From a virus, in the IMG/VR virus record IMGVR_UViG_3300019458_000018, positions 1 to 40,197 of that record: a stretch of 40,197 bases of DNA; one strand, given 5' to 3'. A program made the position numbers and the translations under genes. The notes under the pieces are model-generated. The model was not told the origin of the DNA. It saw only the letters and a list, made by a program, of their open reading frames with translations, and ran no database searches. How positions within the stretch are numbered: the stretch's first letter is position 1; every line of letters starts with the position of its first letter. This document shows positions 8,978 to 12,535 of this stretch, piece after piece.

Positions 8978-9358
8978 ATGACCTCGAAGCGCCCGATCGT
9001 GGCCGTCCCTCTCTGGTACGCGACCACCGCTCCCGTGCCTCGGTCGCAGCGAGTCGCGCACGTCTGCTGGCACGACGCTGGCGCCGTGTGTGGCGCGGAC
9101 CTGCACGGTGAGGCCGTCGCCGTGGTCGCCCGCCGCTTCCGCCGGTGTCCGTCGCATCCGAGCCGTTCGCCGGCGCACACTTCGCCGTTCGCGGGTAGCG
9201 GCACCGTCGGCATGGTCGCGGTGATGCACGGCCGCCGCTTCGTCGGCTGCGAGCTAAATCCGGAGTACGCGGCGCTCGCCGAGAAGCGCATCGCTCACCC
9301 GGACTGGGACGGGCGCGAGGTCGATGCGGACGAGAGGCAGGCGACGCTATGGCCGTGA
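8978..9358 (+). pseudogene. Remnant of a beta-class DNA methyltransferase (only the C-terminal motif I region kept), possibly still translated as a 126-aa ORF
   Basis: The C-terminus SPFAGSGTVGMVAVMHGRRFVGCELNPEYAALAEKRIAHPDW parallels DPFCGSGTVGMVAVANGRDFVGIDLDERSVELAVKRISFPDW of the 3200..4204 enzyme. No SPPY/DPPY motif is present. A different frame (9151..9195) reads VASEPFAGAHFAV, compared with VPTVPFHGAHTAV in the intact enzyme. Confidence 0.5.
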
Positions 9359-10122
9359 GGCACTACGCCGACGACACCGCGGAACTTTGGGCGGCCGACG
9401 CCACGGACGCGGAGGCAGCGGCTCGGGTGCTCGGCGGCCGTCGAGCAGCGGCGCTCGTCGTGGACGCGCCGTACTCGGACCGCACGCACGCGGGGCACGG
9501 CGCCGGTACAGCGGCGGCGACCCGCGCCTACGCCGCGCGCGTGGCGAGCGGCGTAGGCGCGCCCCACCGTGACCTGGCCTATCCGTCGTGGTCCTCGGTC
9601 GAGGTCGAGGCGTGCTGCGCCGCGTGGCTGCCTCACGCCGCCGGATGGTGCGTGTCACTTACCGATCACATCCTCGCGCCCGTGTGGGACGCGGCGTTCC
9701 GCGCCCGTGACCTCTACGTGTTCGCGCCGCTGCCGCTCGTCGAGACGGGCTCGCGCGTCCGACTGACCGGCGACGGGCCGAGCTGCTGGACCTGCTGGCT
9801 CGTCGTAGCCCGCCCGCGCTCGCGCGAATTCGCGTCCTGGGGCACGCTGCCGGGCGCGTACGTGCAGCCTGCCGAGCGGCGCTTCAGCGACCGCATCGTC
9901 GGCGGCAAGCCGATCCGGGCGACGCGCGCGATCGTCGCGGACTACTCCCGCCCCGGGGACCTCGTGGTCGACCCGTGCTGCGGCGCCGGCACCACGCTGC
10001 TCGCCGCGCGCCTCGAGGGCCGCCGCGCCATCGGCTGCGACACGTCGCATGCGCACCTCCAGATCGCAGCGCGACGGCTGCGGCCGTACCCGCCTGGCTC
10101 GCTATTCGGGGAGGCGACGTGA
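9349..10122 (+). CDS. DNA methyltransferase, beta-class, with an atypical motif IV (DAPY)
   Basis: ALVVDAPYSDRTH (motif IV variant) comes before LVVDPCCGAGTTLLAARLEGRRAIGCD (motif I). Confidence 0.75.
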   Translation: MAVRHYADDTAELWAADATDAEAAARVLGGRRAAALVVDAPYSDRTHAGHGAGTAAATRAYAARVASGVGAPHRDLAYPSWSSVEVEACCAAWLPHAAGWCVSLTDHILAPVWDAAFRARDLYVFAPLPLVETGSRVRLTGDGPSCWTCWLVVARPRSREFASWGTLPGAYVQPAERRFSDRIVGGKPIRATRAIVADYSRPGDLVVDPCCGAGTTLLAARLEGRRAIGCDTSHAHLQIAARRLRPYPPGSLFGEAT

Positions 10123-11057
10123 CCGCGATCGAGTGGACCGACGCGACGTGGAATCCCACGCGCGGCTGCTCGCGCGTCTCCCCGGGCTGTGTGAACTGCT
10201 ACGCGGAGCGCGTCGCGATGCGCTTCTCCGGCGAAGGTCAGCCTTACGCCGGCCTCGCGAAGCTCCGCGGTGGCCGTCCGGGCTGGACCGGGAAGGTGCG
10301 GCTCGTGCCGGAGATGCTCGCGAGGCCGCTGCACTGGCGCAAGCCGCGGCAGGTGTTCGTCAACTCGATGTCGGACCTGTTTCACGAGGCGCTGTCGGAC
10401 GAGGAGATCGCTGCGGTGGTCGGCGTGATGGCCGCGTGTCCTCAGCACTCGTTTCAAGTCCTCACGAAGCGTGCGGAGCGGATGCTGGAGTGGTACGAGT
10501 GGGTGTCGGATGCCGAGGAGCCGCATCCGGCGAATCGCTGTGTCGCGCTGGCGGAGGATGCGCTTCGTGACTGGCGCGACGGCAAGGGCTGGTGGAACAA
10601 GCAATGGCCGCTCACCAACGTTTGGCTCGGCGTCTCAGTCGAGGACCAGGAGTGCGCGAACGAGCGCATCCCGCACCTGCTCGACACGCCGGCCGCGGTG
10701 CGGTTCCTCTCGTGTGAGCCGCTGCTTGGGCCGATCGACCTGACGCCGTGGCTCCCGTCGCTCGACTGGGTGATCGTCGGGGGCGAGAGCGGCCCCGACG
10801 CGCGCCCGTGCGAGGTCGAGTGGGTGCGCGCCCTCGTGCGCCAGTGCCGCGAGGCCAATGTGGCTTGCTTCGTCAAGCAGCTCGGGGCGCGGGTGCACCA
10901 TGTGCGGCGCTGGGAGCCGCCGCCGCTCCGCTACGAGCGCCTCGACCTCACCGGCTGCGCACACGCACACCGAATCTTGCTCCGGCACCCCAAGGGCGGC
11001 GACCCGCGCGAGTGGCCCGAGGACCTGCGCGTCAGGGAGTATCCGACGGAGCGCTGA
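10119..11057 (+). CDS. Phage Gp37/Gp68 family protein (DUF5131; three-Cys motif)
   Basis: The N-terminus [27 protein letters not shown] is the family signature. The C-terminal part carries [13 protein letters not shown] and [8 protein letters not shown]. GTG 10119 overlaps the methyltransferase stop. Confidence 0.85.
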   Translation: [312 protein letters not shown]

Positions 11058-12535
11058 TGGCACGCGTCTGCCTCACCGAGCCCAGCGAGACAGGTGGCAT
11101 TGGAGCCAGCGGGGTCCGCATCCTGGAGTACGCCCTCGTGCGCGCCGGTCACACCGTCACGCGCGTCCATGTCCATCGCCGGGGCAGCTCTCAGCTCCCA
11201 CTGCTCGACGGCGGCACGGTCGAGCTGACGGGCCGCAGCACACAACGGCCGGATGCCTGGTTCGTGAGCGCGCTCTATCCGCGGCAATGGCTCGACGTGC
11301 CGCGATTGCTCGCGCGCATCGGGGTACCCGCGCTCGCGGAGCACCGCGCCGCCAGCGATCCGCTCGTCGCCTTCGGCGGTCAGTCCGCCATCGCTCCCGC
11401 ACCCCTGGAACCGTTCGCCGACGTCATCGCACTGGGCGACGGTGAGCGGACCGGGCCGGAGCTGGCCGAATGGTGCGCGCGCGGTCGGGAGTATGCCCTC
11501 GCCCGTGCCGACGAGTCGCCAGGCTACATGGTCCCCTCCCGGACCCGGCAGCTGACGCGCGTCGAGTCCGGTGCGAATCTCATCGGGGAGCTGCTGCCGG
11601 GCAGACCGATGGTCGAGATCGCGCGCGGCTGCAAGAGCAAGTGTGCATTCTGCCCGATCGGCTGGGCTGGCGGCTCCTACCGCGAGGCGTCGGAGGCCCG
11701 CGTCATGGCGAGCATAGACCGTGTGCGCGGGAAGAAGCTGCTCCTCTACGCGCCCGACGGCTCCAGTGTCGACGGCATCGCGAGGTACGAGCAGCGGCTC
11801 CATCAGGCCGGCTGCGGGAATGCCGCACGGGATGCGCGCCTCGATCGGCTCATGCGTCACGCGGTGGCGACGGCCCGGAGCTACTCCTTCGGCATCGAGG
11901 GGCTGTCTGCCCGGCTGCGCGCCGCTATCGGGAAGCCGATAGCGGACGAGGACATCGTCGCTGCGCACGGCACACTGGCACGCGTCGGCGTCAAATCGGT
12001 CCGGTGGTACATGATCATCGGGCTGCCGGGCGAGGACGATGCCGACCTGCGTGAGTTTCTCGAGCTCCTCGACGCCGCGCACGCCGTCTTCCCTCGCTCT
12101 CTGAGCGTCACTCTTACGCACTTTCAGGCTGTCCCGCACACGCCACTCGGGCGTCTCGCGAACCGATACGACGAGCGGGCTGTGGCGCGCGGGCTTGCGA
12201 TCCGCGAGCACCTCCGACGTGCCTGGGAGGCGAGCGAACGCAAGACGCTCGCGAGTCAGCCGAAGGGTCGGGAGTTGCACGAGTCCGATGTCGCCTTGCA
12301 GCGAGGCCCGCGCGAGGTAGCGCACGCGCTCATCGAGCTCGGGGGGAACCGCGCGGCATTCGGGGACGGCCGGTGGCGCGAGACCTTCGCCCGGCATGGC
12401 GCCGATCCGGAGCGAGCCCTCGACGCTCATCCGGATGCCACACCCTGGGATCACGTCGTCACGGGCGCGAAACCCGAGAAGCTCCGCGCGGCCCTCGCCC
12501 GGTACTGGCACGAGGTCTCGGGAGCCCCGTCGTGA
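11057..12535 (+). CDS. Radical SAM enzyme with an N-terminal B12-binding-like domain (class B type)
   Basis: MVEIARGCKSKCAFCPIGW contains CxxxCxxC. The upstream part is Rossmann-like (LVAFGGQSAIAPAPLEPFADVIALGDGE). The ATG overlaps the upstream stop (TGATG). Confidence 0.8.
   Translation: MARVCLTEPSETGGIGASGVRILEYALVRAGHTVTRVHVHRRGSSQLPLLDGGTVELTGRSTQRPDAWFVSALYPRQWLDVPRLLARIGVPALAEHRAASDPLVAFGGQSAIAPAPLEPFADVIALGDGERTGPELAEWCARGREYALARADESPGYMVPSRTRQLTRVESGANLIGELLPGRPMVEIARGCKSKCAFCPIGWAGGSYREASEARVMASIDRVRGKKLLLYAPDGSSVDGIARYEQRLHQAGCGNAARDARLDRLMRHAVATARSYSFGIEGLSARLRAAIGKPIADEDIVAAHGTLARVGVKSVRWYMIIGLPGEDDADLREFLELLDAAHAVFPRSLSVTLTHFQAVPHTPLGRLANRYDERAVARGLAIREHLRRAWEASERKTLASQPKGRELHESDVALQRGPREVAHALIELGGNRAAFGDGRWRETFARHGADPERALDAHPDATPWDHVVTGAKPEKLRAALARYWHEVSGAPS

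Follow-up and report, generated by a model that had tools for sequence, protein, structure and literature searches.

Three adjacent genes in the early region of an uncultured tailed phage, which encode a predicted DNA methyltransferase, a DUF5131 protein and a radical SAM protein, are probably independently working accessory enzymes that lie side by side in one early operon. This reading departs from the earlier note, in which the trio was taken to act together in modifying the phage DNA or the nucleotide pool. One useful result concerns the radical SAM protein, which, judged by its sequence, represents a rare, phage-restricted branch of the large and uncharacterized TIGR03960 family, and is encoded by a mobile single-gene cassette.

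The window, that is, the whole stretch of DNA analyzed, spans ~40.2 kb with a GC content of 72%. The locus is a single tightly packed early replication/recombination operon, whereas the late region of the window holds structural genes. At the head of the operon, on the plus strand like the rest of the operon listed here, is a recombination module (6378–8973; PF12684 and PF04404) that consists of a DUF3799 PD-(D/E)XK exonuclease (6378–7223, PF12684), three small genes and an ERF annealase (8227–8973, PF04404). Downstream are a methyltransferase remnant (126 aa, 8978–9358, partial PF01555) and the trio itself: the methyltransferase with a DAPY motif (257 aa, 9349–10122, PF01555), the DUF5131 or Gp37-Gp68 family protein (312 aa, 10119–11057, PF07505) and the radical SAM protein (492 aa, 11057–12535, PF19864 and PF04055). 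These are followed by a Superfamily 2 DNA helicase (490 aa, 12532–14004; PF04851 and PF00271; phrog_16, E = 8e-75), a VRR-NUC nuclease (126 aa, 14001–14381, PF08774), a primase-polymerase (Prim-Pol; 286 aa, 14473–15333; PF09250, E = 8e-25) and a VapE/D5-like primase-helicase C-terminal protein (443 aa, 15330–16661; PF05272, E = 8e-72). A third methyltransferase, of the PF01555 N6/N4 type with CcrM-like NCBIfam matches (334 aa), is encoded on the minus strand (3200–4204). The genes, motifs and overlaps that the earlier note described are all in place, and its domain assignments, namely, a beta-class methyltransferase with DAPY, a DUF5131 protein with three Cys and a radical SAM enzyme with a class-B-like architecture, were correct.

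The three genes directly adjoin each other, their stop and start codons overlap, and they are embedded among DNA replication genes. Given, in addition, that SAM use is plausible for all three families and that the phage carries two more methyltransferase genes or remnants, the trio could be construed as one hypermodification pathway with the dNTP pool or the phage DNA as its target, in which, for instance, a carbon is methylated by radical chemistry or a methylated base is elaborated further. We regard this possibility as very unlikely. The overlaps at the junctions of the trio (GTGA at 10119–10122, TGATG at 11055–11059 and GTGA at 12532–12535) are real, but in the gene calls, 14 of the 19 same-strand junctions in the operon overlap, mostly by 4 nt, so that translational coupling is common throughout the operon and does not set the trio apart. 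In five other phages, the radical SAM gene resides in tail or packaging modules. Furthermore, the Pfam matches in the 21.5 kb around the cluster include none of the known hypermodification precursors (dNMP hydroxymethylase or thymidylate-synthase homolog, 5-HMUDK, kinase) and none of the 7-deazaguanine genes (DpdA, FolE/QueCDE).

The pairwise linkages within the trio are not conserved either. Many contigs with radical SAM homologs are short (2–3 kb), so that missing neighbors are informative for only about 12 contexts; DUF5131 was found next to none of the ~24 radical SAM relatives and in 0 of the 12 informative contexts, and tblastn with the DUF5131 protein of the window against all loci with a close radical SAM homolog yielded matches only in copies of the same phage. 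Among 80 IMG/VR loci that encompass DUF5131, neither this radical SAM gene nor a DAPY-type methyltransferase was present within 5 kb (0/80 each), and among 80 loci of the DAPY methyltransferase, one had DUF5131 within the same distance and none had the radical SAM gene. An all-against-all comparison of the neighbors of the radical SAM gene identified none that was conserved except between two related phages. The co-occurrence of radical SAM and DUF5131 across phages, proposed as a check in the earlier note, is thus not observed, although the radical SAM protein does not fall into a family of known non-nucleic-acid function. A joint pathway, if real, would represent a novel type of DNA hypermodification in phages, but the comparative evidence goes against it, so we would not prioritize the locus as a cluster. 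The adjacency of the three genes in this phage is real, and their one-off recruitment into a pathway is still compatible with comparative genomics.

Taken one by one, the first member of the trio is predicted to be an orphan beta-class DNA amino-methyltransferase from a large phage-borne subfamily, with more than 1,200 homologs and 142 IMG/VR loci. The PF01555 match (45.4 bits, cutoff 26.7) is limited to profile positions 166–220, and the N-terminal 180 residues lie outside the Pfam model match. The motif order, IV followed by I, is that of the N6-adenine and N4-cytosine enzymes of this family (CcrM, DpnA, M.MboIIA, M.RsrI), as are the C-terminal helix, the GGKP element (HPTQKP-like) and motif I (DPCCGAGTT, nt 9970–9996), which can be aligned with its counterparts in CcrM and DpnA; CcrM and DpnA are also the closest relatives in the PDB. 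The DAPY motif IV (residues 39–42, nt 9463–9474) matches the position of DPPYN in CcrM and DpnA, with this stretch alone scoring below threshold. The subfamily differs from the other beta-class enzymes in that motif IV reads D-A-P-[YF]-S instead of (D/N/S)-P-P-(Y/F/W), and also in having its own THxGH and PLPLVETGSRVR...GDGPS block. DAPYS is retained in 32 homologs, with D39, P41 and S43 invariant and A40 conserved in at least 90%. Family membership suggests that this protein most likely methylates phage DNA at N6-adenine or N4-cytosine, which would allow escape from host restriction. What the upstream remnant retains of a PF01555 enzyme is the C-terminal end with motif I, and motif IV is missing; its PF01555 match is limited to residues 138–171 of the long ORF (profile positions 188–221), and its tblastn matches in phages are limited to residues 57–125. 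An alignment of 56 aa between the remnant and the C-terminus of the methyltransferase encoded on the minus strand shows 59% identity.

The second member is a clear representative of PF07505 (281.5 bits against a gathering threshold of 28.9, E = 7e-84; phrog_2045, E = 2e-95) and matches the PADLOC models PDC-M41B and PDC-M30B. Like the other Gp37-Gp68 family proteins (COG4422; phiE125 gp37, PBC5 gp68), it contains three Cys, GGESG, KQ and one further motif, and is encoded in an early region, as are the copies in other phages; a C-terminal extension of ~50 residues is common to its closest homologs. The three cysteines (C17, C24 and C27, nt 10167–10199) are invariant across the family. The family is entered as Megacluster-5-2 on RadicalSAM.org (PMC9477430). 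By profile and motif, it is not a canonical radical SAM family: PF04055 was detected in none of 38 members, even at E values up to 1, and the motif is Cys-x6-Cys-x2-Cys, not CxxxCxxC. There is a weak match to TIGR04471, ‘radical SAM mobile pair protein A’ (41 bits, residues 165–254), and the AF2 model (mean pLDDT 91) yielded non-significant TIM-barrel matches only in Foldseek, such as spore photoproduct lyase (E ~0.03–0.04, TM ~0.33). Bacterial DUF5131 proteins are usually paired with TcmP, whereas no such partner (TIGR04474) is present among the neighbor genes in the window; the DAPY methyltransferase is unrelated to the real TcmP of plasmid pPB07_1. Both in phages and in chromosomes, DNA methyltransferase genes are often located in the vicinity of DUF5131, and no neighbor family occurs in more than 6 of the 80 IMG/VR loci. 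We regard DUF5131 as the Gp37/Gp68 protein that is widely encoded, on its own, in the early regions of phages and, considering its three invariant Cys, is probably an Fe-S enzyme with a TIM-barrel-like fold that acts on DNA or in defense or counter-defense. With hundreds of phages and plasmids encoding it, and its appearance in candidate defense systems, DUF5131 is a worthwhile target on its own.

The third member is a radical SAM superfamily protein, as indicated by PF04055 (49.2 bits, cutoff 29.5), the CxxxCxxC motif and the fold matches. It encompasses a Rossmann-like N-terminal domain, the cluster motif CKSKCAFC (C192-x3-C196-x2-C199, nt 11630–11653), of which all three cysteines are invariant in 41 homologs, and a helical C-terminal domain; the AF2 model (mean pLDDT 89) predicts five strands in the Rossmann-like domain. 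The best PDB matches of this model are MgmA, MtaB, TokK, AprD4, CysS, MiaB and OxsB, the top one being MgmA, the methyl-coenzyme M reductase glutamine C-methyltransferase (E = 2e-14, TM 0.54/0.62). The combination of a Rossmann-like domain with a partial radical SAM barrel is that of the class B structures MgmA (9ccb), TokK (7kdy), CysS (9n1c) and OxsB (5ul4), with Foldseek E values from 2e-14 to 3e-8 and TM ~0.5 but an identity of just 12–17%. The matches to AprD4, which has the architecture of class B enzymes and is not known to use cobalamin, and to the methylthiotransferases MiaB and MtaB are equally good. Of the profiles suggested in the earlier note, PF04055, PF07505 and PF01555 scored above their cutoffs in the respective proteins, but PF02310 was not detected in the 492-aa protein and was weak in some homologs; in view of this and of the AprD4, MiaB and MtaB matches, cobalamin use and methyl transfer are putative. 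The protein would be a self-sufficient enzyme that cleaves SAM at the CxxxCxxC [4Fe-4S] cluster, and its Rossmann-like domain may use cobalamin.

The family affinity is to cellular relatives annotated as ‘B12-binding radical SAM protein’ (TIGR03960). The phage protein shares with them PF19864 (Radical_SAM_N2, 55 bits) and PF04055, a Rossmann-like N-terminal domain with ALGDGE, the RGCxxxCxFC cluster loop, LPGE(T/D)D and a C-terminal helical domain with PWDH, and hhalign aligned it along its whole length with a cellular TIGR03960-type protein at a probability of 99.9% (positions 18–506, 468 aligned columns). It scores only 69 bits against TIGR03960, compared to the NCBIfam cutoff of 462.3, is 24–28% identical to these proteins and is ~100 residues shorter. 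The context differs, too. In cellular loci, DUF2344 (TIGR03936) is fused to or paired with the radical SAM protein in 32 of 38 cases, and RNase E/G is encoded immediately downstream in 26 of 38, whereas neither is fused or adjacent to the phage enzyme, and neither was found near the gene in the window or the 11 other phage-type loci.

The phage-type gene is rare, with about 65 close homologs in 5.8 billion proteins (~45 clusters at 50% identity), all on phage or prophage-like contigs and none in 50,697 GenBank phage records. Its location varies widely. Two phages have syntenic tail modules in which the gene separates genes B and C (L071) or genes E and F (L005); identity is 77% for the radical SAM copies and 49–77% for the flanking proteins. 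Other copies are located after the terminase (L072), in the gap between terminase and portal (L006) and after the tail fibers (L004), or else, as in the window, in early regions (L073, L077, L089 and L033). The copies inside tail, baseplate or terminase-portal modules (L071, L005, L004, L072 and L006), the top structural match to MgmA and a weak match to TIGR04014 could indicate that the enzyme is a cobalamin-dependent C-methyltransferase that, like MgmA or Mmp10, modifies a virion, assembly or host protein. We nevertheless consider a protein substrate unlikely: RNA-modifying MiaB and MtaB, and the small-molecule enzymes TokK, CysS and AprD4, fit about equally well, no structural neighbor gene is conserved as a candidate substrate, the parent family is tied to RNase E/G, and five copies, including that in the window, lie in early regions.

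A different partnership is suggested by the DNA methyltransferases near the radical SAM gene in 4 of the 12 contexts, somewhat above the chance expectation (rough estimate, p ~0.05). In the window, in L089 (PF01555, 370 aa) and in L073 (D12 class), the methyltransferase gene is the first or second one upstream, and in L005, it is located 2.4 kb downstream; three different families are represented. A methyltransferase gene is also found in the vicinity of the more distant radical SAM relatives of L097 and L011. The radical SAM enzyme might then partner DNA methyltransferases in general, rather than DUF5131, and either use N-methylated DNA as its substrate or introduce a second, carbon-centered modification that reinforces the protection from restriction. 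This, however, appears quite unlikely, given that 8 of the 12 contexts lack a nearby methyltransferase, that L071, a close relative of L005, has none in the 15 kb covered, that the enrichment is marginal against the high frequency of methyltransferases in early regions of phages, and that we know of no class-B radical SAM enzyme that acts on DNA.

For the radical SAM protein, which we favor as working independently of its neighbors, the cellular TIGR03960 proteins give a hint of what it does. Because these, with DUF2344, are encoded directly upstream of RNase E/G, the substrate of the phage enzyme, by association, is most likely RNA or the RNA-processing machinery rather than phage DNA. The RNase E/G synteny is a feature of cellular paralogs, which show only ~25% identity to the phage enzymes and carry a partner domain that these lack, and such differences make the transfer of an RNA role weak. 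Still, this synteny and the methyltransferases near 4 of 12 copies make a nucleic-acid role plausible for individual genes, as distinct from the trio. It seems decidedly unlikely that the phage protein modifies a nucleic acid, which would make it the first radical SAM enzyme with a class-B architecture to do so, be it phage DNA, alongside the recurrent neighboring methyltransferases, or host or phage RNA, as the RNase E/G synteny hints, perhaps in combination with DUF5131 in this phage to yield a so far undescribed modification. Because the genes for the radical SAM protein, DUF2344 and RNase E/G are clearly syntenic in different phyla, a function of the family in RNA processing is a hypothesis that can be tested, and the phage branch, free of DUF2344, offers a compact entry point to the function of this widespread bacterial family.

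The gene combination is not known from any characterized system, in agreement with the earlier note. One point of comparison is offered by the phage thymidine hypermodification clusters, which reportedly (Lee et al., PNAS, 2018) include radical SAM enzymes. Thymidine hypermodification needs an enzyme that forms 5-hydroxymethyl-dUMP, 5-HMUDK kinases and transferases of the aGPT-Pplase type, none of which were detected in the window; the feature that the window has in common with these clusters is a phage radical SAM gene located close to genes of DNA metabolism.

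The sequence analyzed here is nearly the entire 40,209-bp metagenomic contig ENA ERZ27251176, with further assemblies obtained from SRR7811987 and SRR7811943. It has a G+C content of 72% and belongs to a tailed phage that encodes a terminase, a portal, a major head protein and tail proteins; no tRNA genes were found in the window, and terminase comparison yielded no host assignment, the best matches being scattered over psiM2, Pelagibacter and Arthrobacter phages. The early operon, on the plus strand, includes the genes for a DUF3799 PD-(D/E)XK exonuclease (6378-7223), which is followed by three small genes, an ERF annealase (8227-8973), a 126-aa methyltransferase remnant (8978-9358), a 257-aa methyltransferase (9349-10122), a DUF5131 protein (10119-11057), a 492-aa radical SAM protein (11057-12535), an SF2 helicase (12532-14004), a VRR-NUC protein (14001-14381), a Prim-Pol (14473-15333) and a VapE-like protein (15330-16661). 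The order and annotation of the methyltransferase, DUF5131 and radical SAM genes, hereinafter the trio, as well as the GTGA, TGATG and GTGA junctions reported in the earlier note, were all borne out by the sequence. However, according to the gene calls, 14 of the 19 same-strand junctions of the early operon overlap, 12 of these by 4 nt, so that stop/start overlap is not specific to the trio.

A third methyltransferase is encoded on the minus strand (3200-4204), and its C-terminus is 59% identical to the C-terminal 56 residues of the remnant at 8978-9358. A related methyltransferase gene that lost its 5′ part, including motif IV, beside the ERF gene is the probable source of the remnant. The only long non-coding gap in the plus-strand block (16662-17043, 382 nt) falls between the replication genes on one side and the GroES, sugar-pathway and terminase genes on the other, and may contain an early/late regulatory region. 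Just upstream of the terminase, an apparently complete pathway for a nonulosonic (sialic-acid-like) sugar was detected (17481-21670). A GroES-like co-chaperone (17481-17879) precedes genes for a NeuB-like synthase (17876-18706), a PseF/KdsB-like cytidylyltransferase (18703-19293), a NeuC-like UDP-GlcNAc 2-epimerase (19290-20297) and an MptE/Maf-like protein (20309-21670), every one of these matches falling under the NCBIfam equivalog cutoffs. The pathway could serve glycosylation of virion or host surface structures.

The earlier note proposed that the trio constitutes a single nucleic-acid modification cluster, and we examined each pairwise linkage from each side. No homologs of the radical SAM protein were found in 50,697 GenBank phage records; about 65 close homologs (36-49% identity, ~500 aa), or about 45 clusters at 50% identity (1.84 billion representatives), were identified in metagenomes. 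Genomic context was obtained for about 24 of these, 12 with useful flanks. In a tblastn and HMM search of the ~24 loci, no homologs of DUF5131 or of the methyltransferase with the DAPY motif were detected beside the phage-type radical SAM gene, the DUF5131 gene of the window being recovered by tblastn only in copies of the same phage; nor did these loci share any neighbor families, save between two related phages. Among 80 IMG/VR loci of the DAPY methyltransferase, DUF5131 was present within 5 kb once, in a non-adjacent position, and the radical SAM gene never; conversely, neither a radical SAM gene (0/80) nor a DAPY-type methyltransferase (0/80) was found within 5 kb of DUF5131 at 80 IMG/VR loci. 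The distribution of the three genes does not support a common modification pathway. Furthermore, a search of the window for the precursor enzymes of known hypermodification pathways in phages gave none. Given the lack of pairwise linkage, the generic character of the overlaps and the absence of precursor enzymes, the trio behave as independent modules, and the best-supported reading is that of three accessory enzymes, each independent of the others, that share a compact early operon.

The 257-aa methyltransferase matches PF01555 only in the C-terminal motif I region (45 bits). At the motif IV position, D-A-P-[YF]-S is retained in 32 homologs (48-61% identity), with D39, P41 and S43 invariant and A40 conserved in at least 90%. 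A profile search identified the N6-adenine enzymes CcrM and DpnA as the nearest relatives in the PDB, with DAPYS aligned to their DPPYN, this stretch alone scoring below the threshold. The conservation of DAPYS, together with this alignment, indicates that DAPY is a subfamily hallmark rather than a sign of decay; the subfamily includes more than 1,200 matches and 142 IMG/VR loci. The possibility that the protein is a disguised TcmP partner was ruled out (hhalign probability 0.3%). Judging by the sequence, the best-supported prediction is an orphan DNA amino-methyltransferase of the DAPY subfamily.

The DUF5131 protein is an unambiguous member of PF07505 and phrog_2045, with an invariant C17-x6-C24-x2-C27 motif. 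DUF5131 is listed as a radical SAM subgroup at RadicalSAM.org (PMC9477430); the protein does not match PF04055 and weakly matches the radical SAM family TIGR04471. A search of the PDB with its AF2 model (mean pLDDT 91) using Foldseek returned nothing significant, the top, non-significant matches being TIM-barrel aldolases and spore photoproduct lyase (E ~0.02-0.04), and a PDB sequence search gave no match at E up to 1. DUF5131 is found in 174 GenBank phages, at least 591 IMG/VR stretches and 409 plasmids; in PADLOC, the protein from the window matches component B of two candidate defense systems. It has no conserved partner in phages, the commonest neighbor family appearing in only 6 of the 80 IMG/VR loci; the best-supported description of the DUF5131 protein in the window is a common stand-alone protein. 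Methyltransferases are often encoded nearby, and the neighbors of DUF5131 would fit a role in DNA modification, defense or counter-defense. No functional studies of DUF5131/PF07505/COG4422, TcmP or the PDC-M30/M41 candidates were found in the literature searched.

Two DUF5131 loci outside the window illustrate such surroundings. On plasmid pPB07_1 of Pseudochrobactrum algeriensis (locus L263, 3992-7884), DUF5131 is convergent with tcmP and adjoins a Mrr-type restriction endonuclease, within a prophage-like region that also encodes RecT and a PD-(D/E)XK nuclease; the TcmP has only a weak GMT-like wHTH Pfam match. On a chromosome-size contig of 2.2 Mb (locus L182, 6001-12689), a DUF5131 homolog (58% identity) heads three DNA methyltransferase genes, two of PF01555 and one faintly of the D12 class, with an MTaX1-domain gene beyond them on the opposite strand.

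The 492-aa protein matches PF19864 and PF04055, and C192, C196 and C199 are the sole invariant cysteines among its homologs; no matches were found in PADLOC or PHROGs. In the AF2 model (mean pLDDT 89), the radical SAM core is flanked by a Rossmann-like domain and a helical C-terminal domain; its best relatives among solved structures are MgmA, MtaB, TokK, AprD4, CysS, MiaB and OxsB (TM ~0.5). The predicted fold and the structural matches agree with the class-B architecture proposed in the earlier note, but cobalamin use was not confirmed, because PF02310 gave no match and the matches to AprD4 and MiaB are just as good. A MiaB-like methylthiotransferase was ruled out, as the N-terminal part has no conserved cysteines that could hold a second cluster.

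The phage-type radical SAM gene occupies diverse locations. In two syntenic phages with the same tail module (tape measure, genes A to E, baseplate gene F), its slot is between B and C at L071 (8001-9620) but between E and F at L005 (8001-9548); the two copies are 77% identical, and the flanking proteins 49-77%, most of them below the copies, which suggests that this single gene recently moved or was exchanged. Elsewhere, it directly follows the large terminase (L072), separates the terminase from a Mu-like portal (L006) or comes after the tail fibers (L004). At other loci it is part of the early region, where its neighbors are RecT at L077, YqaJ at L033 (where an Acidobacteriales MAG contig ends), a D12 methyltransferase at L073, and both a SNF2 helicase and a PF01555 methyltransferase at L089. 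Such scatter typifies a self-sufficient accessory gene, a mobile single-gene cassette. An alternative is that the gene is linked to DNA methyltransferases: in the window and at L089 and L073, methyltransferase genes of three different families precede it by one or two genes, and at L005 one is encoded 2.4 kb downstream. The resulting 3-4 of 12 contexts are, by a rough estimate, marginally above the expectation for a random early gene, and we therefore retain this linkage as a rival reading. At L004, an AlkB-like 2OG-Fe(II) oxygenase and an ASCH-domain gene, both from families tied to nucleic-acid modification or repair, were observed once (10757-11820), ~1.2 kb downstream of the radical SAM gene on the opposite strand.

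No functional studies of TIGR03960, DUF2344 or PF19864 were found in the literature searched. In cellular genomes, DUF2344 is fused to or follows the TIGR03960-type protein in 32 of 38 loci, and RNase E/G is encoded downstream in 26 of the 38 (L035, L036, L038-L045, L047, L048, L050-L052, L054, L058-L066 and L068); the set spans Actinomycetota, Bacillota and other lineages and, being rich in Pseudonocardiaceae, does not amount to 38 independent observations. At L038, a MiaB-like methylthiotransferase is next in the row. These gene associations point to a function of the parent family in RNA processing, and we infer that this role might have carried over to the phage branch. We rejected the idea that DUF5131 stands in for DUF2344, since neither accompanies the other phage-type radical SAM genes. 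The phage-type profile aligns with the cellular TIGR03960-type protein end-to-end (hhalign probability 99.9%, 468 columns), the two sharing the motifs ALGDGE, RGCxxxCxFC, LPxETD and PWDH; the protein from the window scores 69 bits against TIGR03960, compared with the NCBIfam cutoff of 462. In contrast to the cellular loci, no phage-type locus includes DUF2344 or RNase E/G. The radical SAM protein, the most interesting part of the locus, is thus best described as a derivative of the TIGR03960 family that is rare, mobile and confined to phages, a variant of a known, uncharacterized family.
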